DNA of 64,000 nucleotides from Nitrogeniibacter aestuarii (lineage in GTDB: Bacteria; Pseudomonadota; Gammaproteobacteria; Burkholderiales; Rhodocyclaceae), in contig NZ_CP071321.1 in assembly GCF_017309585.1 (NCBI RefSeq), forward strand, positions 156,335 to 220,334, written 5' to 3'. Below are positions 2,286-38,038 of this stretch, in pieces. Position 1 is the stretch's first letter. Every line of letters begins with the position of its first letter. The notes under the pieces were generated by a model. That model was not told the origin of the DNA. It worked only from the letters and a program-made list of their open reading frames with translations, and did not search any database. The translations under genes were made by a program, and so were the position numbers.

Positions 2286-3721
2286 CCCTCAATACGACAT
2301 TGCTGACCCCCGTCCTCGCCGCCCTGGTGCTGGCGGGTTGTGCCTCCGCGCCACAGATCGACGCCAGTGCCCTGCCCACGGCACCGGCCCAGTACCGTGA
2401 AAACGATGCGCGCTGGATGCGCGCCGACACGGCCACGGTGGCGCCCCGCGCCGACTGGTGGACGCTGTTCGACGACCCCGTCCTCGACCAGCTTGAAACG
2501 CAAGCGGCCAAGAACAACAATGCCCTGCAAACCGCCGCCGCCAACCTGGCCCGTGCCCGCGCCGTGGCACGAATCACCGATGCCGACCGGGCACCCCAGG
2601 TGGGTGTCGGCGCACAGGTGACCCGCCAGGGCGGCCCGCTGGCCGAAGAGGCCGGCACTGCAGGCACACTCGGTCAGGTGGGGGCGAGCTTCTCCTATGA
2701 AGTGGATCTGTTCGGCCGCCTCTCCGAGGCGTCACGCGCAGCTCGCCTCGATGCCGACGCCCAGGCGGCCTTGCTCGACGACGCCCGCCTGCTGGTGCAT
2801 GGCGCGGTGGCGGAAACCTATCTGGCCATCCGCGTGCTCGACCAGGAGCGCCGTGTGGTGCGCGATACGGTGGCGGCCTACCGCAACACGCTGGACCTGA
2901 GCCGCCAGCGGCTCGACGCCGGCGACATCTCCGAACTCGATGTGGCGCGCATCGAGACCGAGCTGGCGGTCAACGAATCCGACGCCCTGGCGCTGGACCG
3001 CCGCCGTGCCGTGCTCGAACACGGTCTGGCGGTGCTGGTGGGGCAGGCCGCCTCGGACTTCACGCTCGAAGCCACCGACTGGACGGCCACCCTGCCGACC
3101 ATCCCCGCCGGCCTGCCCAGCGCCTTGCTGAGTCAGCGTCCGGACGTGCTGGCGGCGCAGCGGGCGGTGCTCGCGGCGCAGGCGCGGGTGGGCGTCGCCC
3201 AGGCGGCGTGGTTCCCCAACATCGCGCTGACCGGCAACGCCGGCTATGCCTCGACCGATCTGGAAGACCTGTTCAAGTGGTCGACCCGCGCCTGGGGGAT
3301 CGGTGCGCTCCTGTCCTTGCCCATCTTCGATGGCGGCCGGCGCGAGGCCGGTGTACAGAGTGCGCAGGCGGACCTCGACGGGGCGCTGAGTCGCTACCGG
3401 GAACAGGCGCTGGTGGCGTTCCGCGACGTGGAAGACCAGCTCGCCTCCCTGCGTCTGTTGTCCGAGCAATCCGATGCCCAGGCCCGCGCGGTCAATTCGG
3501 CCACGCGGGCCATGACCCTGTCCGAACATCGCTACGACAACGGGCTGGTGAGCCAGCTTGACCTGCTCGATGCGCGTCGCAGCGAGCTGGCCAGCCGACG
3601 GGTGGCCCTGCAGGTGAAAGCGGCGCGGTATCAGTCCACCGTCGCACTCATTCGCGCACTCGGTGGCCGCTGGGCGCCGGGTGGTGCAGCCGAGCCGGTG
3701 GCGCTGGCCAACACCCCTTGA
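2282..3721 (+). CDS. RND efflux outer-membrane factor lipoprotein, NodT/OprM family
   Basis: N-terminal lipobox (LVLAGCAS). TolC-like coiled-coil/beta-barrel repeat composition. Translationally coupled to the upstream permease. Confidence 0.88.
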   Translation: MTLNTTLLTPVLAALVLAGCASAPQIDASALPTAPAQYRENDARWMRADTATVAPRADWWTLFDDPVLDQLETQAAKNNNALQTAAANLARARAVARITDADRAPQVGVGAQVTRQGGPLAEEAGTAGTLGQVGASFSYEVDLFGRLSEASRAARLDADAQAALLDDARLLVHGAVAETYLAIRVLDQERRVVRDTVAAYRNTLDLSRQRLDAGDISELDVARIETELAVNESDALALDRRRAVLEHGLAVLVGQAASDFTLEATDWTATLPTIPAGLPSALLSQRPDVLAAQRAVLAAQARVGVAQAAWFPNIALTGNAGYASTDLEDLFKWSTRAWGIGALLSLPIFDGGRREAGVQSAQADLDGALSRYREQALVAFRDVEDQLASLRLLSEQSDAQARAVNSATRAMTLSEHRYDNGLVSQLDLLDARRSELASRRVALQVKAARYQSTVALIRALGGRWAPGGAAEPVALANTP

Positions 3722-3726
3722 TCAGT

Positions 3727-3891
3727 AATGCCGTTCAGTTAAGAGAATCCGAGCCTTATAGACGGGTCGCTCCCTCCCCTTCAAGGGGAGGGTTGGGGTG
3801 GGGATGGGGTGAAACTGGGCAGCTCAAACCCCATCCCCCTCCTGACCTCCCCCTTGAAGGGGGAGGAACCGTGCCTTAACTGAACGGCATT
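3727..3891. repeat. Compound palindromic intergenic element between two convergent genes
   Basis: 17-bp perfect terminal inverted repeats: AATGCCGTTCAGTTAAG at 3727-3743 and CTTAACTGAACGGCATT at 3875-3891. These enclose two internal perfect hairpins (CCCTCCCCTTCAAGGGGAGGG and CCTCCCCCTTGAAGGGGGAGG) and G-tract/C-tract complementarity (GGGGTGGGGATGGGG / CCCCATCCCCC). Confidence 0.6.
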
Positions 3892-3900
3892 ACCCCTTGA

Positions 3901-20703: not shown

Positions 20704-23001
20704 ATGATTCTTGCAACCGATCTGGATGGTACTTTTCTGGCGGGCGACCCCGAAAACCGCGCCCGCCTGTATCAGCTCATCAACAACCACCCCGAGATCA
20801 CGCTGGTCTTCGTGACCGGCCGGGGGCTCGAAGTGGTCATGCCCCTGCTCGATGACCCCACCATCCCTCAACCCGATTTCATCATCTGCGACGTGGGTGC
20901 CACCGTCGTCGAAGGTACGCATCTGCAGTCGGTGGAGCCGATCCAGTCGTCGATCGATGCCATCTGGCCCGGTCAGCACGTCGTTGCCGAACAGGTGGCC
21001 GACATCCCCGGCATTCGTCGCCAGAAGATTCCGCAGCAGCGCCGCTGCTCGTACTTCTGCGATGCAGAGGCGGTCACCGACGAGCTGCGCAAGCGGGTCG
21101 AGGCACTGGGTTGCGAGTTGCTGTATTCGGCCGACAAGTATCTGGACGTGCTGCCCAAAGGGATCAACAAGGGCAACACGCTGGTTCAGCTGGTCGATCT
21201 GCTCGAAGTGCCGCGGGACGAGGTGATTGTCGCCGGCGATACGCTGAACGATCTGTCCATGTTCGAGGTGGGCCTGTTCGGGGTGGCCGTGGGCGAGTCA
21301 GAACAAGGCCTGCTCGACGCCACCCGCGACCGCTCCAAGATCCTTCACGCCAAGCACACTGGCTGTGGCGGCATTCTCGAAGCCTTGTCGCACTTCGGCT
21401 TCCTGGGCCAGGGGGCGGTGGCCGCCGAGCTGGCCGAGCTGTCCAAGCCAGGGCGCTCAGAGCTGGTGATGGTGTATCACCGCCTGCCCTACGAAGAAAC
21501 CTGGGAGAACGGCGAGCTGGTGCGTCGTCGGCCCACGTCCCCCAACGGCATCATGCCGACGCTGTTCTCGTTCTTCAAAGGCGGCAAGCGCGGCGCCTGG
21601 GTGGCCTGGTCCATCCACGACCCCGAGAGCGGCCGCCCTTTTGAAACCCACACCGTGGTGGATCGCAAGGAATTCCCGGGCCTGGTGGCGGCGCGCGTAG
21701 CGCTCACCAAGAACGACGTGGACGTCTTCTACAAGCGTTTTTCCAAGGAAGCCTTCTGGCCGACGCTGCATACCTTCTGGGAGCGCGCGCACTTCCGCGA
21801 GGAAGACTGGGAGGTGTTTCTCAAGGTGAACCGCATGTTCGCCGAGCGCACTGCGGCCGAGGCCGCCGAGGGCGCGCTGGTGTGGCTGCATGACTACAAC
21901 CTGTGGATGGTGCCGGCCTTCCTGCGCGAGTTCCGCCCCGATCTGCGTATCGCCTTCTTCCACCACACCTACTTCCCGTCTGCCGATGTGTTCAACGTGC
22001 TGCCGTGGCGCCGCGAGATCATCGGCAGCCTGATGCAGTGCGACTACATCGGCTTCCATATCCCGCGTCAGGTGGAGAACTTCATCGATGCCGCGCAGGG
22101 GGTGCTGCCGGTCAAGGTGGTCGAGCGCAAGGCCAGTGCGCCACGCTTCCGCACCTATGGCTGCGCGGTGGGCGTGGACACCTACGCCACCACAATCGAG
22201 GTGCACAATCGCCGCATCGGGCTGGGCGCCCACCCGGTCGGGCTCGACGTGGGCCGCATCGAGAAGATTCTGGCCGAGCAGTCGACCCAGAAGCGTATGG
22301 AAGCCTTGCGGGCCGAGCTGGCGGGCAAGCGCATGGTGCTGTCGGTGGAGCGCCTGGACTACACCAAGGGCACGCTGCAGAAGATCGAGGCCTTTGAGCG
22401 CCTGCTTGAAAAGCATCCCGAGTTCCACGGCAAGGTCACCCTGGTGACTGTGTGTGTGCCGGCGGCCAAGGAAATGACCATCTACCAGCAGTTGCAGGAG
22501 CAGATCGAGCGCGCCGTGGGGCGGGTCAACGGCCGTTTCTCCACCGTGGGCTGGACGCCGCTGCAGTTCTTCTTCCGTCCGCTGCCCTTCGAAGAGGTGG
22601 TGAGCTACTACGCCATGGCCGACGTCATGTGGATCACCCCATTGCGCGATGGCCTCAACCTGGTGGCCAAGGAATACGTCGCCACGCAGGGCCTCACCAA
22701 CGGCAAGGGCACCCTGGTGCTGTCCGAGTTTGCCGGCGTGGCGGCCGAGCTGCATGGCACCTTGCTCACCAATCCGCACGACCCGGCCGATCTGGAAGAC
22801 AAGATCTACCTGGGGCTGACCATGAGTGGTTCGAATGGCGACCCGGCCGGGCGCATCCGTCAGCAGTTCGGCATCGTCCAGCACAACGATGTGCACGCCT
22901 GGGGGCAGGAGTTCATGGAGGCGGTCAAGGCGGTGGATACCACCCCGCTGGAAGACCGTGAAGAGCCTGCGATGGCATCCGAACTCAGCGGTGTAAGCTG
23001 A
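20704..23001 (+). CDS. Bifunctional HAD-IIB sugar-phosphate phosphatase / GT20 glycosyltransferase (GgpPS-like glucosylglycerol-phosphate or trehalose-6-P phosphatase-synthase fusion)
   Basis: N-terminal HAD motif I (ATDLDGTFL) and motif III (VIVAGDTLNDLSM). C-terminal GT20/OtsA-like motifs (VVYHRLPYEE, LVWLHDYNLWMVPAFLRE, FFHHTYFPS, VSYYAMADVMWITPLRDGLNLVAKEY). RBS GAGGATAACAACGATG. Confidence 0.75.
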   Translation: MILATDLDGTFLAGDPENRARLYQLINNHPEITLVFVTGRGLEVVMPLLDDPTIPQPDFIICDVGATVVEGTHLQSVEPIQSSIDAIWPGQHVVAEQVADIPGIRRQKIPQQRRCSYFCDAEAVTDELRKRVEALGCELLYSADKYLDVLPKGINKGNTLVQLVDLLEVPRDEVIVAGDTLNDLSMFEVGLFGVAVGESEQGLLDATRDRSKILHAKHTGCGGILEALSHFGFLGQGAVAAELAELSKPGRSELVMVYHRLPYEETWENGELVRRRPTSPNGIMPTLFSFFKGGKRGAWVAWSIHDPESGRPFETHTVVDRKEFPGLVAARVALTKNDVDVFYKRFSKEAFWPTLHTFWERAHFREEDWEVFLKVNRMFAERTAAEAAEGALVWLHDYNLWMVPAFLREFRPDLRIAFFHHTYFPSADVFNVLPWRREIIGSLMQCDYIGFHIPRQVENFIDAAQGVLPVKVVERKASAPRFRTYGCAVGVDTYATTIEVHNRRIGLGAHPVGLDVGRIEKILAEQSTQKRMEALRAELAGKRMVLSVERLDYTKGTLQKIEAFERLLEKHPEFHGKVTLVTVCVPAAKEMTIYQQLQEQIERAVGRVNGRFSTVGWTPLQFFFRPLPFEEVVSYYAMADVMWITPLRDGLNLVAKEYVATQGLTNGKGTLVLSEFAGVAAELHGTLLTNPHDPADLEDKIYLGLTMSGSNGDPAGRIRQQFGIVQHNDVHAWGQEFMEAVKAVDTTPLEDREEPAMASELSGVS

Positions 23002-28822: not shown

Positions 28823-30469
28823 TCACGGCGTCTGCCCGGTGTTTGCGGGGCCTTGAGCGATGTCGGACCAGGCCAGCTCGAACTTCGCCAGATACTTGCG
28901 CAGGCGGTCGGCGTCGTTGACCACCTTCCGCTCGGTGCGCGAGATGTCGAACAGCTGTCGGCCGGCCTCCGACAGGCTCTTGCAGCGACGGCATTCGGCC
29001 ACTACTGCGGCCAGTTGAAGCCGGTCGAAACGATCGAGCGCATCGAGCCGATCCCCCAGCAGGGCGCGCAGACCGGCGGCGTCCGTCTCGCCGGCCTCCA
29101 CCGCCCACGCGTGTCTGAGGCGCTCGATTTCCTCTGCCACAATCGCCTCGTTGATCCGCCCGGCATCCGCCAGGGTCGCCATACGCGTGACCGAGGCCGA
29201 CAGCTCGCGAAAGTTGCCGCTCCAGCGCGCCTCGGGCGAGGTGGCAAAGCGCAGCCAGGCGCGTTTGGCCTCCACGTTGAAGCGCACTGCCTTGCCCAGT
29301 TCGCGGGCATGGCGCTCGAGTTCGAAATCCAGGTTGGGTTCGATGTCCTCGACCCGTTCGGCCAGGCCCGGCAGGGGGAAGGTCCACAGGTTGATCCGGG
29401 CATAGAGGTCTTCGCGGAATTTGCCCTCGCGCACCCATTGGCGCAGGTCGCGGTGGGTGCCGGCGATGAGCATGAAGTCGCTGCTCACCTCGGTGTCGCC
29501 GCCAAAGGGAAAGAAGTGCTTCTCTTCAATCGCCTTGAGCAGCATCGCCTGCTCGTCCAGGCCCAGCTCGCCGATTTCGTCCAGAAACAGCATGCCGTCG
29601 TGGGCCGCCCGCAGCAGGCCGGCGCGCTCGGTCTGCGCACCGGTAAAAGCCCCCTTCACATGGCCGAACAGGGCCGACATGGCCATGTCGCCGCGCAGGG
29701 TGGCGCAGTTCACCTCAACAAATCGCCCCTTCACCTGGTGACGGCGCTGGCGCAGTTCGAAAATGCGTCGTGCCAGAAAGCTCTTGCCCGCGCCGGTGGG
29801 CCCTACCAGCAGCACCGGCGCGGTGGAGCGCACCGCCACCTTCTCGATCTGCTCGATGGTGCGGTTGAAGGTGGCGTTGCGGGTGGCGATACCGCTCTTG
29901 AGGAAAGAGACGGTCTCCTCCGCCTCGCGGGCAAAGCGGGTGGCAATGGCGTCGTAGCGGGACAGATCCAGATCGATGACGGTGTGGGTGCCGCGCACGT
30001 CGCGGGGTTCGCCTTCGTTGGCCTCAGTGCGGCGCTTGCGCGGTGGCGCGGTCTGAAGCAGCCGCGCGGGCAGATAGTGCGCCTCGGTGAGCAGAAACCA
30101 GCAGATCTGCGCCACATGGGTGCCGGTGGTGATGTGGACGAGGTAGTCCTCGGCCTCGGTGTCGAAGGCATAGCCACGGGCGAAATCGTGCAGCGCGCCG
30201 TAAACCTCGCCGAAGTCCCACGGGTCGCGCAGCTCGATCTCCACCGAGCGCACCTCCGTCGCGGGCGACACCTCGGCAATGTCGAGCTTCACCTTGCTGG
30301 CCAGCCCCCGATTGCGGGCGTCGTGGATCAACTCGAGCCGATGCACCGGCAGGCCGTCCTGCTGGCACAGCCCCACCGTGGGTCGCCATTTCTGCCAGCG
30401 TTGCTGCCCCCGGCCACCGTAGTCGAGCACGGTGCCGAGAAAGCCGATCACGACGTTCTTGCGGTTCAT
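28823..30469 (-). CDS. rtcR: RtcR, sigma54-dependent transcriptional activator with N-terminal CARF domain
   Basis: N-terminal MNRKNVVIGFLGTVLDYGG (CARF-type). AAA+ sigma54 interaction module with Walker A GPTGAGKS and GAFTGA motif (HVKGAFTGA). C-terminal HTH. Divergent from an rtcB-containing operon. Confidence 0.85.
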   Translation of the reverse strand: MNRKNVVIGFLGTVLDYGGRGQQRWQKWRPTVGLCQQDGLPVHRLELIHDARNRGLASKVKLDIAEVSPATEVRSVEIELRDPWDFGEVYGALHDFARGYAFDTEAEDYLVHITTGTHVAQICWFLLTEAHYLPARLLQTAPPRKRRTEANEGEPRDVRGTHTVIDLDLSRYDAIATRFAREAEETVSFLKSGIATRNATFNRTIEQIEKVAVRSTAPVLLVGPTGAGKSFLARRIFELRQRRHQVKGRFVEVNCATLRGDMAMSALFGHVKGAFTGAQTERAGLLRAAHDGMLFLDEIGELGLDEQAMLLKAIEEKHFFPFGGDTEVSSDFMLIAGTHRDLRQWVREGKFREDLYARINLWTFPLPGLAERVEDIEPNLDFELERHARELGKAVRFNVEAKRAWLRFATSPEARWSGNFRELSASVTRMATLADAGRINEAIVAEEIERLRHAWAVEAGETDAAGLRALLGDRLDALDRFDRLQLAAVVAECRRCKSLSEAGRQLFDISRTERKVVNDADRLRKYLAKFELAWSDIAQGPANTGQTP

Positions 30470-30805
30470 GAGTTTCGCCAGAAAGATAAAAAACTAGCCA
30501 TTTGTATCTGATTTTAGCGACCGTGTTAAGCGCGTACATGACGAATGGCAATGCCGATAAAAAATTTTGTCTATTGAAAACATGAGTTTGCGATCTTTTT
30601 GAATCCTCTGTCGTATTTCTGGCACGCCCTTCGCAGTACAGAGATCAACCGCGGAATCACCGCTGGAGTACGGGTTGAGGTTCTGGATGCCTCGCCGGTG
30701 CGCTCCCGCCGGATGACGTTGTGTGGGGCGTATGCCGCCTCGGTGAAGAAACGGTGTGCTGGATGCGTGTTGGTACGTTGATTCAGGTTCGACTCCTGAC
30801 ATCCC

Positions 30806-30880
30806 CGTTCGGTAGCTCATTTGGATAGAGCAGCAGATTTCGATCTGTTGGTGGCGGGTTCGAATCCCGCTCGAACACCA
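30806..30880 (+). ncRNA. tRNA-like element (tRNA mimic or degenerate tRNA) with 3' CCA
   Basis: Canonical D-arm (TA-GCTC-ATTTGGATA-GAGC). Canonical T-arm (GCGGG-TTCGAAT-CCCGC). 6-7 bp acceptor pairing (CGTTCGG / TCGAACA) followed by encoded CCA. The anticodon arm is aberrant: CAGAT-TTCG-ATCTG with a UUCG-type tetraloop, or a 6-nt loop. Confidence 0.5.
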
Positions 30881-31126
30881 GCCTGATTAGCTGGCATTTA
30901 TTTCAAGCAGTACCCGCCGGTTGTGGCGGAAAGGGCGGCGGCCCACGCGGCCAACGCCCCGCCCGCCACCGCCGTGCCGGCCGGCCCTTGTGGCTCGCCA
31001 CGGGCAGCGATGGCAACACCTGACGGGTTGGAGGGCGCTTCGGTGACTTCCACTGCCCAAAGGCCTTGCCCCCGCACCCCGAGGCGCCCCGCAGGCGGCC
31101 CGCCGGCACGGCGACAGACTGGTAGA

Positions 31127-31390
31127 GGGGTCATCCCTCGCCATTCGCTGGATCGCGTTGTGCTCATGGCGCTTCGCTGGAACATCTTGAGGCTCGTCGC
31201 ATTGTGCGCATCTGCCTTTTGGAGGGATTCGCAGTAGCCATGAGCACAACCCTGCGGGCTCACCCCTGCTGGGCTCCATGGCCGCGTTGCGACTCCTTGA
31301 CTGGGGGCCACCCAGTCTGCGTCCCCGCGCCTTGCCCTGCAGCCCAGCAGGAGTGATCGCGCCAACGAATGGCGAGGGATGACCCCTCCC
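31127..31390. ncRNA. Candidate long-stem structured RNA (Y-RNA-like architecture) between rtcR and the band-7 gene
   Basis: 23-bp perfect inverted repeat: GAGGGGTCATCCCTCGCCATTCG at 31127-31149 and CGAATGGCGAGGGATGACCCCTC at 31368-31390. Extended by GATCGCG/CGCGATC. Internal hairpin GTGCTCATGGC...GCCATGAGCAC. No convincing ORF. Confidence 0.35.
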
Positions 31391-31426
31391 GGCCACAAGC
31401 CGAAAACAGATGATTGGAGAATAAAA

Positions 31427-32575
31427 ATGAACATGTTGTGGAAGCGATTCGTGGTGAACCAGACCCAGCGCGCGCTGTTGCTGCGCGAGGGCAACTTCGA
31501 GCGTGTGCTCGAGCCGGGTGTGCATCGTGTGATGGACCCGTTCGACCGCTACGCCATCCAGTGCTGGAGCGTGCAGGCGCCGCACTTTGATCACCCGCTG
31601 GCTGAAACCCTGCGTCGTGAGCGGGGCGCGGTGATCGAACAGTACTTCGATGTGATGGACACCAATGAAGATCAGGTGGGCCTGCGCTTCGAGAACAAGA
31701 TGCTGGTCGAGATCGTGCCGCCGGGCGCCCGTCGCCTGTACTGGAAAGGCCCGGCCGAGGTGCGCTTCGAGGTGGTCGAGCTGGCCGAAGGCGCCGAGGT
31801 GCCGGCGCGTGTGGCGCGTCTGCTGAACCAGTCCAACCTGCGTAGCCGCGTGGTGACCGGGCTGGCCGGGGTGTTGAGCCTGCAAGTGCCGGCCTGGCAT
31901 CTGGGTGTGCTGAAGATCGACGGCAAGGTCGAGCGCCTGCTGGAGCCTGGTTTCGTGGCCTTCTGGCGCTTCAACCGCGAGGTGAGCGTCGAGCTGGTCG
32001 ATACCCGTCTGCAAACCTTGGAAGTGAGCGGGCAGGAGATCCTGACCCGCGACAAGGTCGGCCTGCGGGTGAACCTTGCCGCCACCTGGCGCTTTGCCGA
32101 CGTGCTGGCTGCGTTTGCCGCCACACCGAAGCCGGTGGAGCACCTGTACCGCGAACTGCAGTTCGGTTTGCGGGCGGCGGTGGGCACCCGGTCGCTCGAT
32201 GAGTTGCTGGAAAACAAGCAGCTCATCGACGAGGTGGTGAGCCAGCACCTGGCCCAGAAGCTGGCCGGGCAGGGCATCGAGGTGCATAGCGTGGGCGTGC
32301 GGGACATCGTTCTGCCGGGCGAGATGAAGACGATTCTCGCCCAGGTGGTCGAGGCGGAGAAATCCGCCCAGGCGAACGTGATCCGTCGCCGCGAAGAAAC
32401 CGCCGCCACCCGCTCGCTGCTCAACACCGCCAAGGTGATGGAAGAGAACCCGACGGCCCTGCGCCTGAAGGAGCTCGAAACCCTGGAGCGTGTGGCCGAG
32501 CGTATCGACCGCATCTCGGTGTTCGGTGGCCTGGACCAGGTGCTGAACGGCCTGGTGAGCATCAAGTCCGGGTGA
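31427..32575 (+). CDS. SPFH/band-7 (stomatin/prohibitin-like) domain protein
   Basis: 382 aa from MNMLWKRF with RBS GGAGAATAAAAATG. Band-7 core. Characteristic C-terminal coiled-coil (IRRREETAATRSLLNTAKVMEENPTALRLKELETLERVAE). Confidence 0.8.
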   Translation: MNMLWKRFVVNQTQRALLLREGNFERVLEPGVHRVMDPFDRYAIQCWSVQAPHFDHPLAETLRRERGAVIEQYFDVMDTNEDQVGLRFENKMLVEIVPPGARRLYWKGPAEVRFEVVELAEGAEVPARVARLLNQSNLRSRVVTGLAGVLSLQVPAWHLGVLKIDGKVERLLEPGFVAFWRFNREVSVELVDTRLQTLEVSGQEILTRDKVGLRVNLAATWRFADVLAAFAATPKPVEHLYRELQFGLRAAVGTRSLDELLENKQLIDEVVSQHLAQKLAGQGIEVHSVGVRDIVLPGEMKTILAQVVEAEKSAQANVIRRREETAATRSLLNTAKVMEENPTALRLKELETLERVAERIDRISVFGGLDQVLNGLVSIKSG

Positions 32576-32654
32576 GATTGGGACACGGCTTCGCCCGTGT
32601 CGGCCCGGCCGGGTGCGAGGCGATGGCTTCGCACCCGTTGGGGGAGGGCTTGGC

Positions 32655-32865
32655 GGGGCTGAGCGCGAAATGGCGAGCGGCCGGAAATGATTGCCGATAC
32701 CGGTGAAGGGTAAAACCGAAGGCTTTGGAAACGGGCGGTATTTGAGGATGCAGCTGCGGGGTCTGCGTAAGGTTCCGTACGTGGCGCGCGTTTAAAGCAC
32801 TGTTTCGCACGGGTGTCATGCCCCGTGTCGGCCTATTGCGGGTTCGAGTCCCGCCAGCCCCGCCA
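32655..32865 (+). ncRNA. Candidate structured RNA with tRNA/tmRNA-like terminal module
   Basis: 5' GGGGCTG pairs with 3' CAGCCCC, which is followed by discriminator G and CCA. Perfect T-arm GCGGG-TTCGAGT-CCCGC sits immediately before the 3' acceptor strand. Internal hairpins (CACGGG...CCCGTG; CCGG...CCGG). No tmRNA tag ORF. ~211 nt. Confidence 0.45.
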
Positions 32866-32913
32866 AGCCCTTCCCGGAGGGGAAAACGTTGCCCGGATGC
32901 ACGGGAGTGAAAC

Positions 32914-33321
32914 ATGAAAAGCAACAAACAACGCCGCGCCGAAATCATGGCGGCCCGACGCCAGCGCAAGCGGCTGCGGACGGTGGCGACTCAACTCGAG
33001 CAGCGCCGCGTGCCGCTCGCGGCCAACGCCCTGCCGGTGGACGCGGCCGCGCTGATGCCCACCAACAGTTACGGCGCACCCGTGTGGCAGACGCGCGGTT
33101 TCTATCTGGACCTTGCCTTCACCTGCAAGGACTGCGGTGCCGAGTGCCTGTGGACGGCGCAGCGACAGAAGTGGTGGTATGAAGTGGCCAAGGGCCACCC
33201 CGATTCCACCGCCGTGCGATGCAAACCCTGCCGCGCCAAAGAGCGCGCCAGAAAAGAGACGGCCCGCCGTGTGGCGCTGGCCGGTCTGCAAAAGAAAATG
33301 GAAGCAAAGGAACACCCATGA
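32914..33321 (+). CDS. zinc-ribbon domain protein (135 aa), translationally coupled to rtcB
   Basis: CKDCGAEC...RCKPCRA four-Cys ribbon. Basic N-terminus. Stop overlaps the rtcB ATG (ATGA). Possible weak sigma54-like GG-N10-GC element (AGGGGAAAACGTTGCC) about 20 nt upstream. Confidence 0.6.
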   Translation: MKSNKQRRAEIMAARRQRKRLRTVATQLEQRRVPLAANALPVDAAALMPTNSYGAPVWQTRGFYLDLAFTCKDCGAECLWTAQRQKWWYEVAKGHPDSTAVRCKPCRAKERARKETARRVALAGLQKKMEAKEHP

Positions 33322-34553
33322 AGATCGAACAACAACACGATCACGACATCCTGCACGCGGGACAGGGCGCGCCCATCAAGCTGTGGACCCACGGCGTGCC
33401 GGTCGAAGACGATGCCCGCCAGCAACTCATCAACACCGCGCAGATGCCCTTCATCTACAAGCATCTGGCCGTGATGCCGGATGTGCATCTGGGCAAGGGC
33501 TCGACCATCGGCAGCGTGATCCCCACCCGTGGCGCCATCATCCCGGCGGCCGTCGGTGTGGATATCGGCTGCGGCATGATGGCCGCCCGCACCACGCTCA
33601 CCGCGGCCGACCTGCCGGACAACCTGCACGGCCTGCGCACCGCCATCGAAAAGGCCGTGCCGCACGGGCGCAACATGACCCGAGGCAAGCGCGACCAGGG
33701 GAGCTGGGGTCGCCCGCCCGAGCTGGTGGATGCTTACTGGAAGGCGCTGCTGCCGGGCTTCAACCGCATTACCGAAAAGGCGCCGCGTTTGAAGAACACC
33801 AACAACCATAACCATTTGGGGACGCTCGGTACGGGCAACCACTTCATCGAAGTGTGCCTGGATGAGGCCGAGCGCGTGTGGATCATGCTGCATTCGGGTT
33901 CGCGCGGTGTGGGCAACGCCATCGGCCGCCACTACATCGAACTGGCCCAGGCCGACATGCGCCAGCACATCGCCAATCTGCCGGACCGCGACCTCGCCTA
34001 CTTCGAAGAAGGCTCGCAGCACTTCGACGACTATGTCGAGGCCGTGGGCTGGGCGCAGGACTACGCCCGCAAGAACCGCGAAGTGATGATGCAGCACGTG
34101 ATCGCCGCCACCCGTACCGTGATCGAAAAGCCCTTCCAGGCGGATGTGGAGGCGGTGAACTGCCACCACAACTACGTGCAGCGCGAAACCCACTTCGGGC
34201 ACAAGGTGCTGGTGACGCGAAAAGGCGCTGTGTCCGCCCAGAAAGGCCAGCTCGGCATCATCCCCGGCTCCATGGGCGCACGCAGCTACATCGTGCGCGG
34301 CAAGGGCAACCCGGAGAGCTTCTGCTCATGCAGCCACGGAGCAGGACGCACCATGAGCCGCAACGCCGCCAAGAAGCGTTTCTCGATCGAAGACCAGATT
34401 CGCGCGACCGAAGGCGTGGAATGCCGCAAGGATGCATCGGTGATTGACGAAATCCCGATGGCGTATAAGGATATCGACGCCGTCATGGCCGCGCAGGACG
34501 CGCTGGTGGAGGTGGTGCACACCTTGAAGCAGGTGGTGTGTGTGAAGGGGTGA
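33318..34553 (+). CDS. rtcB: RNA-splicing ligase RtcB (3'-phosphate/5'-hydroxyl RNA ligase)
   Basis: 411 aa. HLGKGSTIGSVIPT, GVDIGCGM, HNHLGTLGTGNHFIE, MLHSGSRGVGNAIG, NCHHNY and AHGAGR motifs of RtcB. Confidence 0.9.
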   Translation: MKIEQQHDHDILHAGQGAPIKLWTHGVPVEDDARQQLINTAQMPFIYKHLAVMPDVHLGKGSTIGSVIPTRGAIIPAAVGVDIGCGMMAARTTLTAADLPDNLHGLRTAIEKAVPHGRNMTRGKRDQGSWGRPPELVDAYWKALLPGFNRITEKAPRLKNTNNHNHLGTLGTGNHFIEVCLDEAERVWIMLHSGSRGVGNAIGRHYIELAQADMRQHIANLPDRDLAYFEEGSQHFDDYVEAVGWAQDYARKNREVMMQHVIAATRTVIEKPFQADVEAVNCHHNYVQRETHFGHKVLVTRKGAVSAQKGQLGIIPGSMGARSYIVRGKGNPESFCSCSHGAGRTMSRNAAKKRFSIEDQIRATEGVECRKDASVIDEIPMAYKDIDAVMAAQDALVEVVHTLKQVVCVKG

Positions 34554-34583
34554 TAGCTAAAATAAATTTGCTCTGGGGCTAGT

Positions 34584-35948
34584 ATGGATAATCTGAATTA
34601 TTCCGAATCTGATTTTGGTGAAAGGTTAAACAAAGTACTTTCAGCGTCAAAGCCGATAAACAGCATTGAATTTTTAAAAGGTAGAGATAGAGAGCTAGAA
34701 ACCATAAAACGCGCTCTATACGCTGACGGGAGGCACGTTTTTATCTTCGGAGATCGAGGTGTCGGGAAGAGTTCACTGGGCCAAACTGCTGCGATCGCAT
34801 ACCAAAGTTCGGATGCAGAACCAATCTTCGTTTCGGGGTCACCTGACGATTCATTCTCATCCATAGTGGCCAACATAGTGGCGCGAGCGATTAGCAAGCC
34901 GCGTACGAAAAGCGTAAAAAATTCGAAAAAAATTTCGCTTTCTTTTAGAGGTCTTTCGATTGGTGAAGGGGAAGATGTCAGCCCAATCGATATCGAATCT
35001 AACATCCAAACAATTGGTGATGCTGTTGAACTGCTCAGGCAGGCTGGAAAAGAGCACTCAGCTAAGCCTATCATTGTAATTGACGAGTTTGATACGATTT
35101 CCAGTCTCGATGAGAGAAACAAGTTCTCATATCTTCTCAAGCAGTTGGGAGATCAAGCAGTAAACATCAAATTCATTTTTACTGGAATTGCTCGGTCTCT
35201 AGATGAATTATTAGGAGTGCATCAATCGGCGTATCGGCAACTCGAGACAGTTGAACTGCCTCGCCTTGGCTGGGACGCTCGCCGCGAAATCGTAACTTCA
35301 ACTGCGGCTGCATTCAATATCACTGTGGATAACGATGTAAATTGGCGCATATGTATGGTGAGCGATGGGTATCCATACTACATACATCTTGTGTTGGAAA
35401 AGATTTTATGGGCAGCTTACATTCTAGAGCCTGATATCTCGGAGATTGGATGGGATTTGTTTCATGAAGGTTTGCACGAAGCCATTTTGGCAACAAGTGC
35501 AGAGTTGAAGCGGCCTTACGAAAAAGCGGTATTGCACAGAGAAGAATCATACGAAGATGTTGTATGGGCAACCGCTGATCATGACGATTTAATGAGGTCG
35601 TTGAATGATATGTATGAATCGTACAGATTGGTTGTAGAAAAAAGGAATGATGCGCGCGAAGTTTTAGACCGGGGGAGATTTTCCGCGCTGGTGCGTAAGC
35701 TCAAAGACGCAAGCTACGGTTCTGTACTTACAAGTGTTGAGTCGCGTAAAGGCTGGTATTCCTACAGAGAAAAAATGCTACGCGGATTCGTTCGAATGCA
35801 AGCGCACGTTAACGGTGTCGAGTTGACTGGTGATCGACCAACGCCGAGACAGACGCAGCACGTTGGGAACGCGCGAAAGGGTTACAAAGGCGCAGCTTTG
35901 CCGCGCGGTGTTCGCCAGCGTTCAAAAATCGGAAGTTGGGACGATTGA
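34584..35948 (+). CDS. P-loop NTPase of the AAA_16/Arch_ATPase (ORC/Cdc6-like) type, encoded on a low-GC island
   Basis: Walker A (FIFGDRGVGKSSL) preceded by LKGRDRELETIKRAL. Walker B (PIIVIDEFD). 454 aa. Codon and GC content sharply lower than the flanks (AT-rich from 34555 to ~36540). Confidence 0.8.
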   Translation: MDNLNYSESDFGERLNKVLSASKPINSIEFLKGRDRELETIKRALYADGRHVFIFGDRGVGKSSLGQTAAIAYQSSDAEPIFVSGSPDDSFSSIVANIVARAISKPRTKSVKNSKKISLSFRGLSIGEGEDVSPIDIESNIQTIGDAVELLRQAGKEHSAKPIIVIDEFDTISSLDERNKFSYLLKQLGDQAVNIKFIFTGIARSLDELLGVHQSAYRQLETVELPRLGWDARREIVTSTAAAFNITVDNDVNWRICMVSDGYPYYIHLVLEKILWAAYILEPDISEIGWDLFHEGLHEAILATSAELKRPYEKAVLHREESYEDVVWATADHDDLMRSLNDMYESYRLVVEKRNDAREVLDRGRFSALVRKLKDASYGSVLTSVESRKGWYSYREKMLRGFVRMQAHVNGVELTGDRPTPRQTQHVGNARKGYKGAALPRGVRQRSKIGSWDD

Positions 35949-35964
35949 AAGCGGTGTTGCGAAA

Positions 35965-36040
35965 CAGGGGGCAGACCTCGGTATTTAACTTAATTAGCCA
36001 GGTTCGAATGTTGAGCGCCTAAAACCGAGCTCTGCCCCCT
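35965..36040. repeat. Long-stem hairpin downstream of the ATPase gene (possible terminator or element boundary)
   Basis: CAGGGGGCAGACCTCGGT ... ACCGAGCTCTGCCCCCT forms a ~16-bp stem around a 41-nt AT-rich loop that contains GGTTCGAAT. Followed by TATTTCGG. Confidence 0.35.
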
Positions 36041-36083
36041 ATTTCGGCTTGTGTGAAGGGGTGAGAGTTTCTGAGGGTTATGA

Positions 36084-36524
36084 ATGCACGTACTAAAAGA
36101 GGGTAAAGAAGCGTTCCTTGAGTTCTTGAGAAATTTGACGCCGCAAGCTTTGCTTTTGGGTATAGCATTGGTCTCGGGGCGCAATCTCACGCTCACGTGC
36201 TGCTACCCAGAAAATGCGGCACAAACTCTTGCGGCGTTCGGATTCGGTGGGCTCGCTCTGCTTGCAGCATGGTCGAGTTCAGCTCTATTTATTGAAAAAT
36301 ACTTCGTTGCAGCTGACGATATGGAGGGAATTTCGCTGCAACTTAAGCGGGATGGATTAGTCGGAATTAATTATATGAAAGAGCTACTCAAACACGCATG
36401 CCGAAGACACAAAATTCTTTTCGTTGAGGCAATTTTCATTGTTTTCGTAGTTGAGTTCGCGATTGCAGCAGTATTTGTAGTGGCAATTGCAAATGCAGCG
36501 GGAATTGTTCGACTAATGAAATAG
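36084..36524 (+). CDS. small membrane protein (146 aa) on the low-GC island
   Basis: 2-3 predicted TM helices (ALLLGIALVS, LAAFGFGGLALLAAW, FIVFVVEFAIAAVFVVAIANAA). Low-GC codon usage like the upstream ATPase. No homolog recognisable by eye. Confidence 0.45.
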   Translation: MHVLKEGKEAFLEFLRNLTPQALLLGIALVSGRNLTLTCCYPENAAQTLAAFGFGGLALLAAWSSSALFIEKYFVAADDMEGISLQLKRDGLVGINYMKELLKHACRRHKILFVEAIFIVFVVEFAIAAVFVVAIANAAGIVRLMK

Positions 36525-36769
36525 CCCGCGTAGGGCGCATTAACCGAAGGCCAATGCGCCGCATGTCTTCCGCGAAGCGTCTTCGACTCGACATACCCTC
36601 TTTCCAGGGAGCCCTGCACGCTCAACCCCGCTGACAAGGTCATTGACCCACTCGAGGTGGGGCGTTGTGGCGAATTCGCGCATGAAAAAGGCGACAGCCT
36701 CAACGGATAGCGCATTGCTGCCCTGCACCAAATTCGCGAGAATAAAGGCCACCAAGTTGGCAGGGGACG

Positions 36770-38038
<1,269 letters not shown>

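Follow-up and report, generated by a model that had tools for sequence, protein, structure and literature searches.

The stretch of Nitrogeniibacter aestuarii DNA analyzed here (64,000 nucleotides of contig NZ_CP071321.1, assembly GCF_017309585.1, positions 156,335–220,334; hereafter the window) carries an RNA-repair locus containing the RNA ligase gene rtcB and the regulator gene rtcR. On the plus strand, a sigma54 promoter motif is followed by a tRNA-like RNA, a gene for an SPFH/Band-7 protein, a gene for a Zn-binding protein (ZnR) and rtcB, with rtcR divergent from them. The positions that an initial annotation of this DNA gave for the four genes are borne out by the open reading frames (ORFs) and by Pfam and NCBIfam matches, as is its description of an RtcR/sigma54-controlled RtcB operon with an SPFH protein, a Zn-binding protein and tRNA-like RNAs; the locus and its genes are confirmed. 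We compared the window with related loci, labeled in the style L001 (e.g. L082), of which 80 were fetched from genomes and others added from metagenomes. One of these, from N. aestuarii GCA_018682635.1 (L103), is 98.2% identical to the window over 12.2 kb.

About 60 of the 80 genome loci share the order rtcR, leader, SPFH, optional ZnR and rtcB; they span Burkholderia, Pseudomonas, Rhodocyclales and Comamonadaceae, and the commonest layout consists of rtcR, a spacer of ~670 bp, the SPFH gene and rtcB. The locus is of a known type at its core, and the link between SPFH and RtcB proteins is not new, contrary to the novelty initially attached to it. The link had already been made by Burroughs and Aravind (Nucleic Acids Res 2016), known here through a 2018 preprint of the Wolin laboratory (10.1101/312249), according to which RtcB is found in certain bacteria beside a Band-7 protein and a predicted tRNA-like RNA named b7a-tRNA (from “band 7-associated”). 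It is also present in Pseudomonas aeruginosa PA14, where the same SPFH gene (PaFlo8, PA14_60630) lies inside the rtc locus (2026 paper, PMC13086221). What the present analysis adds is the anatomy of the leader, the recognition of one presumed structured RNA as an insertion, and a probable new RtcB-associated family of tRNA-like RNAs, which we call RNA3.

The rtcR gene (28823–30469, minus strand) encodes a CARF-type RtcR domain (Pfam RtcR, 2.1e-84) and a sigma54-interaction AAA+ domain (Sigma54_activat, 1.9e-51), and its product matches the NCBIfam equivalog RNA_repair_RtcR with 842.9 bits (cutoff 650). A candidate sigma54 −24/−12 promoter, identified by its motif (TGGCACgccctTCGCA), lies at 30620–30635 on the plus strand. 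The pattern matches the 64 kb only twice; the other match, TGGCACccacgTCGCA, is located at 20887–20902 on the minus strand. Of 62 related spacers, 55 have the motif at an equal distance from rtcR, and it provides the best-conserved columns of the 62-locus alignment. Salmonella RtcR responds to tRNA-derived ligands, with RtcA required for induction (Hughes et al. 2020, PMC7790460), and the connection that had been drawn between this locus and such ligands is a fair reading of that work.

Between the promoter and the SPFH gene lies a leader of ~480 nucleotides (nt), conserved in 62 loci, that consists of two stems that covary, two tRNA-like units in tandem and a domain with a long-range stem. 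Conserved blocks in the 62 spacers correspond to the sigma54 motif, the two stem regions, two T-loops ~71 nt apart and the downstream domain. All of the following elements are on the plus strand. Hairpin H1 (30673–30696) shows compensatory change at 5 of 7 pairs and the long stem H2 (30697–30736) at 10 of 14 helix pairs (RNAalifold, 30 loci). For the part of the leader that runs through the tRNA-like units, 30 non-redundant loci show pairing in 95.6% of cells and compensatory change at 25 of 44 pairs. Controls in which the pairing partners were slid along the alignment gave 38–48% of cells paired and 12–16 compensatory pairs. The downstream domain (30880–31124, ~250 nt) begins with a small hairpin followed by the long-range stem, which in the window includes a 17-bp inverted repeat (30970–30986 pairing with 31097–31113). 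Its conserved blocks are visible in the 62-locus alignment, and 33 of its 35 pairs are compensatory (RNAalifold, 30 loci).

The tRNA-like elements are located 250–330 nt 5′ of the SPFH gene in most loci. Unit A (30760–30805) consists of a short acceptor-like stem and a small hairpin, both read from the sequence by eye, and a T-arm (30783–30799) whose stem covaries and whose loop motif is found ~71 nt 5′ of the second T-loop in nearly all 62 loci. Betaproteobacteria have it in the form of a reduced minihelix, whereas in Pseudomonas the cloverleaf is complete and ARAGORN predicts two tandem tRNAs that abut each other. Unit B (30806–30879), of the b7a-tRNA type, is a cloverleaf with a 6-nt non-anticodon loop. 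ARAGORN reports it as “tRNA-???” and the Rfam tRNA model matches it with 47.2 bits (gathering score 29), in agreement with the tRNA mimic proposed for this position. Three copies of the T-loop motif GGTTCGANTCC are present in the 64 kb, each on the plus strand within the operon, compared to an expectation of 0.17. In addition, the Rfam YrlA model aligns weakly to 30756–30860 (30.3 bits, E = 7e-4), a stretch that spans the junction of the tandem units, with the T-arm of A first and the D-arm of B after it. With a gathering score of 69, a YrlA assignment fails, and only the tRNA half of the model scan that had been suggested gave a positive result. The order of T-arm A and D-arm B is the permuted order of YrlA, which may hint at the origin of YrlA-type RNAs.

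Unit B does not qualify as a genuine decoding tRNA. Its D- and T-arms are invariant and all five pairs of its anticodon stem are compensatory among the 30 loci, but the “anticodon” loop, 4–7 nt long in 29 of the 30, takes 23 distinct sequences and is often a UUCG or GNRA tetraloop; only nine loci have a loop of 7 nt. A CCA is not conserved after the unit. A loop so short and hypervariable does not decode, and conservation at the elbow and acceptor end, instead of the anticodon, argues equally against mimicry of an anticodon-nuclease target.

The last point bears on an alternative explanation of the tRNA-like RNAs, in which they act as sentinels or decoys. They would be bait for the nucleases that cleave cellular tRNAs, and not RtcB cofactors, either supplying cyclic-phosphate fragments to the CARF domain of RtcR or soaking up the nuclease. 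The invariant D-arm and T-arm of unit B, which make up the tRNA elbow, would suit such bait, and some relatives lacking RtcR join the module to 5–10 real tRNA genes, a hallmark of tRNA-cleavage counter-measures. However, a loop of 4–7 nt, with 7 nt in only 9 of 30 loci and 23 distinct sequences among them, cannot imitate what an anticodon nuclease recognizes; bait placed behind an RtcR-dependent promoter would be scarce before induction; and no cleavage of YrlA was seen in Salmonella. We therefore regard a decoy function as unlikely.

The relatives without rtcR are mostly metagenome-assembled genomes (MAGs) of Burkholderiales, in which the tRNA-like/SPFH/rtcB module is found just 3′ of 5–10 ordinary tRNA genes. 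Such arrays lie upstream of the SPFH gene in L037, L041, L043, L045, L048, L054, L059 and L073. L093 (722–2001) has two RNA3-like copies after rtcB, along with nine tRNA genes. The module beside tRNA-gene arrays looks like a portable kit against tRNA damage.

The second tRNA-like RNA of the operon, RNA3 (32655–32865, plus strand), is 211 nt long and lies between the SPFH and ZnR genes. Its 5′ GGGGCUG and 3′ CAGCCCC-G-CCA provide an acceptor stem of 7 bp that is followed by a discriminator base and then by CCA, which is encoded; its T-arm is canonical (GCGGGUUCGAGUCCCGC), and ~150 nt of branched structure are inserted between the acceptor strands. The fold is stronger than expected (z = −4.4), and 32655–32865 are the exact ends of the conserved RNA. 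BLAST identified RNA3 after the SPFH gene in Azonexus, a Zoogloeaceae MAG and a Gallionellaceae MAG, a covariance model search added one divergent copy in Rhizobacter, and a metagenome scan with one conserved 21-mer added nine more loci. Homologues are located beside rtcB in L012, L028, L034, L069, L082, L092–L100 and L103–L106; every copy adjoins rtcB and is co-oriented with it, and there are 15 distinct sequences. Among these, paired cells make up 95.3% and compensatory change is seen at 38 of 60 pairs, compared to 34.7–39.8% and 9–14 pairs in slid controls. Searches of plasmids and viral contigs for RNA3 gave nothing real, the sole viral match lying on the contig (length 363334) of metagenome locus L101, which does not match the RNA3 model.

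RNA3 is similar to transfer-messenger RNA (tmRNA) in its acceptor stem, T-arm, CCA and large structured insert, and 6 of the 15 sequences have the G3:U70 pair. It differs in length (211 versus ~360 nt) and in the lack of a conserved tag frame. No Rfam 15 family matches it at threshold, the best scores (15.5 bits at most) coming from tmRNA models with gathering scores of 47–84 and covering the T-arm and 3′ end only. A mini-tmRNA was rejected: a GCA...UAA frame encoding AAAGSA* is present in the window, but the stop reads CAA in L092, L094, L097 and L028, the tag segment covaries as a helix and ARAGORN finds no tmRNA. An alanine-accepting mimic was rejected as a family feature because no more than 6 of the 15 sequences carry G3:U70, and a tRNA interrupted by an intron because the strand beside the T-arm covaries with alignment columns 75–79, not with the anticodon-stem GGCCG; Rfam gave no group I intron match in RNA3. 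The YrlA covariance model does not match RNA3 either. A selfish palindrome or a remnant of an attachment (att) site is incompatible with the 38 compensatory pairs of 60 and with acceptor pairs that span ~190 nt. RNA3 is a genuine RNA, conserved and linked to rtcB, and falls outside any family catalogued in Rfam 15.

The context of RNA3 varies. The order is SPFH-RNA3-ZnR-rtcB in the window, and elsewhere SPFH-ZnR-RNA3-rtcB, SPFH-RNA3-rtcB, rtcR|RNA3-rtcB-tRNA-like-SPFH, or rtcR|rtcB-RNA3-rtcA with no SPFH gene between. This is relevant to the proposal that the leader and RNA3 are restricted to functions in cis, yielding no stable RNA that acts in trans. They would then serve as attenuators, as sites of RNase P/E processing or as stabilizers that set the relative levels of SPFH, ZnR and RtcB. 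The elements do lie within the operon, co-oriented with it, and in the window unit B is followed at 30878–30894 by a small hairpin whose tail is T-rich. Moreover, tRNA-like structures are known processing signals. Yet the sequence and structure of RNA3 are kept across SPFH-RNA3-ZnR, ZnR-RNA3-rtcB, rtcR|RNA3-rtcB and rtcB-RNA3-rtcA arrangements, and an element that stays constant while changing position behaves like a gene, not like a position-bound regulatory element. The encoded CCA and the covarying 7-bp acceptor stem across ~190 nt point to a matured RNA with free ends, and the hairpin after unit B lacks a U-tail in most relatives. A purely cis-acting function of both elements is thus quite improbable.

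The spacer between the SPFH and ZnR genes, which holds RNA3 in the window, is occupied in close relatives by differing palindromes that resemble repetitive extragenic palindromic (REP) elements, e.g. GTAGGGCGGATAAGCGC... (L083:1314–1533, L087:4095–4212 and L089:5999–6218). L083–L085 keep only the 3′ arm of RNA3, AGCCCCGCCAAGCCTTTCC, indicating that this lineage has also lost RNA3. The spacer is, on these comparisons, a hot spot for palindrome insertion and RNA3 loss.

Two regions of the operon had initially been put forward as structured-RNA candidates. The one at 32655–32865 stands, being conserved, covarying and RtcB-linked. The other, for which 31127–31390 shows a 23-bp closing stem and a z-score of −8.2 against shuffles, does not: it owes its strong fold to a composite palindrome of 264 bp at 31125–31388 (here “RNA2”), which is bounded by perfect terminal inverted repeats of 23 bp and is a recent insertion. 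RNA2 is precisely absent from L087/L088 (96% SPFH identity), L089, L081 and L104, loci that are 95–97% identical to the window in DNA or SPFH protein, and was rejected as a conserved operon RNA on these grounds; L104 has two bases in place of 31123–31388. In N. aestuarii L103 it is 100% identical, though the flanks are 98.2% identical. The insertion accounts for the long spacer between rtcR and the SPFH gene in the window, which at 957 bp is the single outlier among 62 spacers, those of related loci measuring 599–763 bp. RNA2 shares its terminal inverted repeats and its presence/absence polymorphism with miniature inverted-repeat transposable elements. There is no target-site duplication (filled site GGTA|element|CCGGCC versus empty site GGCA|CCGGCC). 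No further copy was found in the 64-kb window, in the loci fetched by then (blastn), in plasmids or in viral contigs, nor by a protein search with its longest spurious ORF. RNA2 is a recent, strain-specific palindromic insertion at the 3′ edge of the leader and plays no part in the system. In the 96%-identical metagenome scaffold L082, a gap of 100 N (3517–3616) covers the equivalent of 31070–31528, and may be an assembly break caused by the palindromic element.

The SPFH protein (slipin family, 382 residues, Pfam Band_7 2.8e-33) is encoded at 31427–32575 on the plus strand, within an ORF that extends from 31379 to 32575; the likely start at 31427 is preceded by GGAG. It belongs to a large “slipin family” and is 60–70% identical across genera. 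The highest mean Kyte-Doolittle hydropathy over 19 residues is 1.32, compared to 1.61 for the soluble RtcB and 3.06 for a 146-residue membrane ORF downstream, and no transmembrane segment or hydrophobic stretch was detected. The AlphaFold2 model (mean predicted local distance difference test score, pLDDT, 81.4) consists of two N-terminal five-stranded β-units, an SPFH core and a long C-terminal helix. The core and an oligomerizing helix are thus both present in the model, and an N-terminal membrane anchor is absent. The protein is predicted from its sequence to be soluble, without a membrane anchor.

These properties leave the suggestion of a membrane-associated variant of the RNA-damage response, with the SPFH protein as its scaffold, unsupported. 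Most characterized SPFH proteins (stomatin, HflK/C, flotillin and prohibitin) are membrane-bound, and stomatin and HflK are the best matches in a fold search. However, there is no hydrophobic segment (maximum 1.32), β-rich domains take the place of an anchor at the N-terminus, a gene for an NfeD partner is lacking, and the major vault protein, which forms a soluble cage, also matches the fold, over a longer stretch. A membrane scaffold is accordingly very unlikely. The vault likeness, drawn from a predicted model, is a lead only; a Pfam Vault repeat was not detected in the SPFH protein.

The ZnR gene (32914–33321, plus strand) encodes a treble-clef Zn-binding protein of 135 residues (Pfam zf_Tbcl, 1.6e-13). 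The protein is basic, with 29 Lys/Arg, and contains CKDC and CKPC motifs. Its TGA overlaps the rtcB ATG at 33318 as ATGA, an arrangement from which translational coupling of ZnR to rtcB is predicted. The AlphaFold2 model (pLDDT 90.6) places a small Zn core between two long helices and matches no fold in the PDB at E below 1. L107 is an Rtc operon with ZnR and without SPFH (rtcR|DUF6847-RtcB-ZnR-RtcA), in which DUF6847 (2912–3478) takes the place of SPFH. A 49%-identical ZnR homologue is found outside the rtc context in L108 (3889–5725) and L109 (285–2121), between a TIR_2-PDZ protein and a 102-residue ORF whose start overlaps the stop of the homologue.

The last gene of the operon, rtcB (33318–34553, plus strand), encodes an RNA ligase of 411 residues (Pfam RtcB, 5e-131) that is 70–83% identical to RtcB of related loci. 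The reported lack of rtcA holds: tblastn with E. coli RtcA gave no match in the 64-kb window, nor in L081–L085. Among the 80 genome loci, 30 have rtcA downstream by tblastn, sometimes after a further ORF. PADLOC assigned none of SPFH, ZnR and RtcB to a defense system and gave the STAND ATPase encoded downstream (see below) a marginal match only.

Taken together, we consider it probable, though far from certain, that the locus represents an RNA-repair operon under RtcR/sigma54 control, belonging to the Band-7 (SPFH)/tRNA-like RNA/RtcB type, and that its RNAs serve as cofactors of an SPFH scaffold that aids RtcB. In this mechanism, RNA damage would yield tRNA fragments with 2′,3′-cyclic phosphate ends that bind the CARF domain of RtcR, a step shown only in Salmonella, and RtcR would open the sigma54 promoter at 30620–30635. 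The transcript would begin with the structured leader of ~480 nt, comprising the two stems, the two tandem tRNA-like units and the long-range stem domain, and would continue through the soluble SPFH protein, the 211-nt CCA-ended tRNA-like RNA, the basic Zn-binding protein and RtcB. Enzymes of tRNA processing would probably excise the tRNA-like pieces. Once released, these RNAs may work with an oligomeric SPFH assembly, either as its cofactors or as its partners in a scaffold, as a counterpart of Ro60 and Y RNA in Salmonella, and the assembly, with the basic Zn-binding protein, would hand broken tRNA or rRNA over to RtcB, which would reseal it.

Several observations count against this interpretation. 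Co-transcription, RNA processing, ribonucleoprotein formation and a role in repair are what we infer for RNAs that are known from sequence alone, and b7a-tRNA is described in the preprint (10.1101/312249) as being without experimental validation. Induction in Salmonella needs RtcA, yet rtcA is absent from the 64-kb window and from beside the operons of the nearest relatives. The leader, taken by itself, could be purely cis-regulatory. RNA3 is present in only 5 of the 80 genome loci, and ZnR lies between SPFH and rtcB in 21 of 80, so that both are accessory parts and not core ones. Finally, deletion of PaFlo8 gave no phenotype in assays of growth, virulence, motility, biofilm or peroxide (PMC13086221), although these assays are unrelated to RNA damage.

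A more specific form of the repair-scaffold interpretation, which we hold only tentatively and judge improbable, is that RNA3 represents a so far undescribed class of tRNA-like RNAs associated with RtcB, each an acceptor/T-arm minihelix with its CCA encoded and a branched domain of ~150 nt, and that these RNAs and the tandem leader units supply the RNA of a vault-like, soluble cage of SPFH protein. RtcB would be housed or guided by this cage while broken tRNA or rRNA is repaired. If true, such a cage would be a bacterial ribonucleoprotein that parallels Ro60/Y RNA in function and eukaryotic vaults in architecture. The eukaryotic vault consists of the major vault protein, vault RNA and the TROVE protein TEP1. 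The SPFH likeness to it comes from a model with pLDDT 81, at a sequence identity of 15–17% and with no Pfam Vault repeat.

Comparison with known systems places the operon among the repair loci while setting it apart in composition. It is similar to the type of Burroughs and Aravind, as this is summarized in the 2018 preprint (10.1101/312249), in combining RtcB, a Band-7 protein and a tRNA-like non-coding RNA; RtcR control and the lack of Ro60 are common to the window and to about 60 of the 80 loci, which are of that type. Relative to that summary, the window adds a second tandem unit, a leader of ~480 nt with covarying stems, the 211-nt RNA3 with its CCA, and the treble-clef protein. With Salmonella rsr-yrlBA-rtcBA, it shares RtcR/sigma54 control, the association of RtcB with a putative scaffold and with tRNA-mimicking RNAs of the operon, and the weak YrlA match over T-arm A and the D-arm of unit B. 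In contrast to Salmonella, the operon has no Ro60/TROVE gene, the ORFs from rtcR to the end of rtcB being SPFH, zf_Tbcl and RtcB, and no rtcA; RNA3 has its ends in an acceptor stem with CCA, but in YrlA the acceptor is closed and the ends lie in the Ro-binding stem. E. coli rtcR-rtcBA has the same divergent rtcR, sigma54 promoter motif and RtcB. However, its spacer is 188 bp and rtcA directly follows rtcB, while in the window 2.8 kb with RNAs and two genes precede rtcB and rtcA is missing.

The locus offers alignable targets for work on RtcB substrates and on why rtc operons carry tRNA mimics and a scaffold protein. Since the rtc locus of P. aeruginosa PA14 holds the same SPFH gene, the questions of the leader and the protein are approachable in a tractable model. 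If RNA3 is a new RNA class, it would join Y RNAs and b7a-tRNA as the third kind of RNA that partners RtcB.

Immediately downstream of the operon, 2 nt after rtcB, a variable cassette of low G+C content (34556–36700, plus strand, ~2.1 kb) encodes a STAND-type ATPase (34584–35948; Pfam AAA_16 and nSTAND1) and the 146-residue hydrophobic ORF mentioned above (36084–36524). The G+C fraction is 0.46–0.54 across 34000–37000 and 0.58–0.69 in the rest of the profiled stretch. The match to L082, which is 96% identical, breaks off at 34555 and is regained near 36711. The drop after rtcB that had been read as a low-GC island is real, its extent being only ~2.1 kb. That the island occupies the place of rtcA was not borne out, as the nearest relatives have no adjacent rtcA and carry other cargo there: the slot holds the same STAND ATPase and 146-residue membrane ORF in N. 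aestuarii L103, three unrelated genes, one for a CSD-Excalibur protein, in L082 (6643–9105), and nSTAND1 with a faint TIR_2 match on the opposite strand in L081 (8983–12287). The slot after rtcB thus holds variable cargo that is not part of the repair system, and nothing indicates a displaced rtcA.

Further ORFs and repeats were noted in and around these loci. A 264-residue protein is encoded between SPFH and rtcB in Comamonadaceae (L050:6165–6959). In L044 (7842–8636), a 264-residue ORF that seems to resemble an RlaP-type nucleotidyltransferase lies between rtcB and rtcA. A second palindromic element of the window, at 3725–3893, is unrelated in sequence to that at 31125–31388; its perfect 19-bp terminal inverted repeats, GTAATGCCGTTCAGTTAAG, lie 131 bp apart around a 40-nt imperfect inner palindrome. 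Beyond the cassette, an ORF of 422 residues (36770–38038) contains a long Pro-Glu repeat (PEPEPE...) and a weak DnaJ J-domain-like match at approximately residues 285–324.

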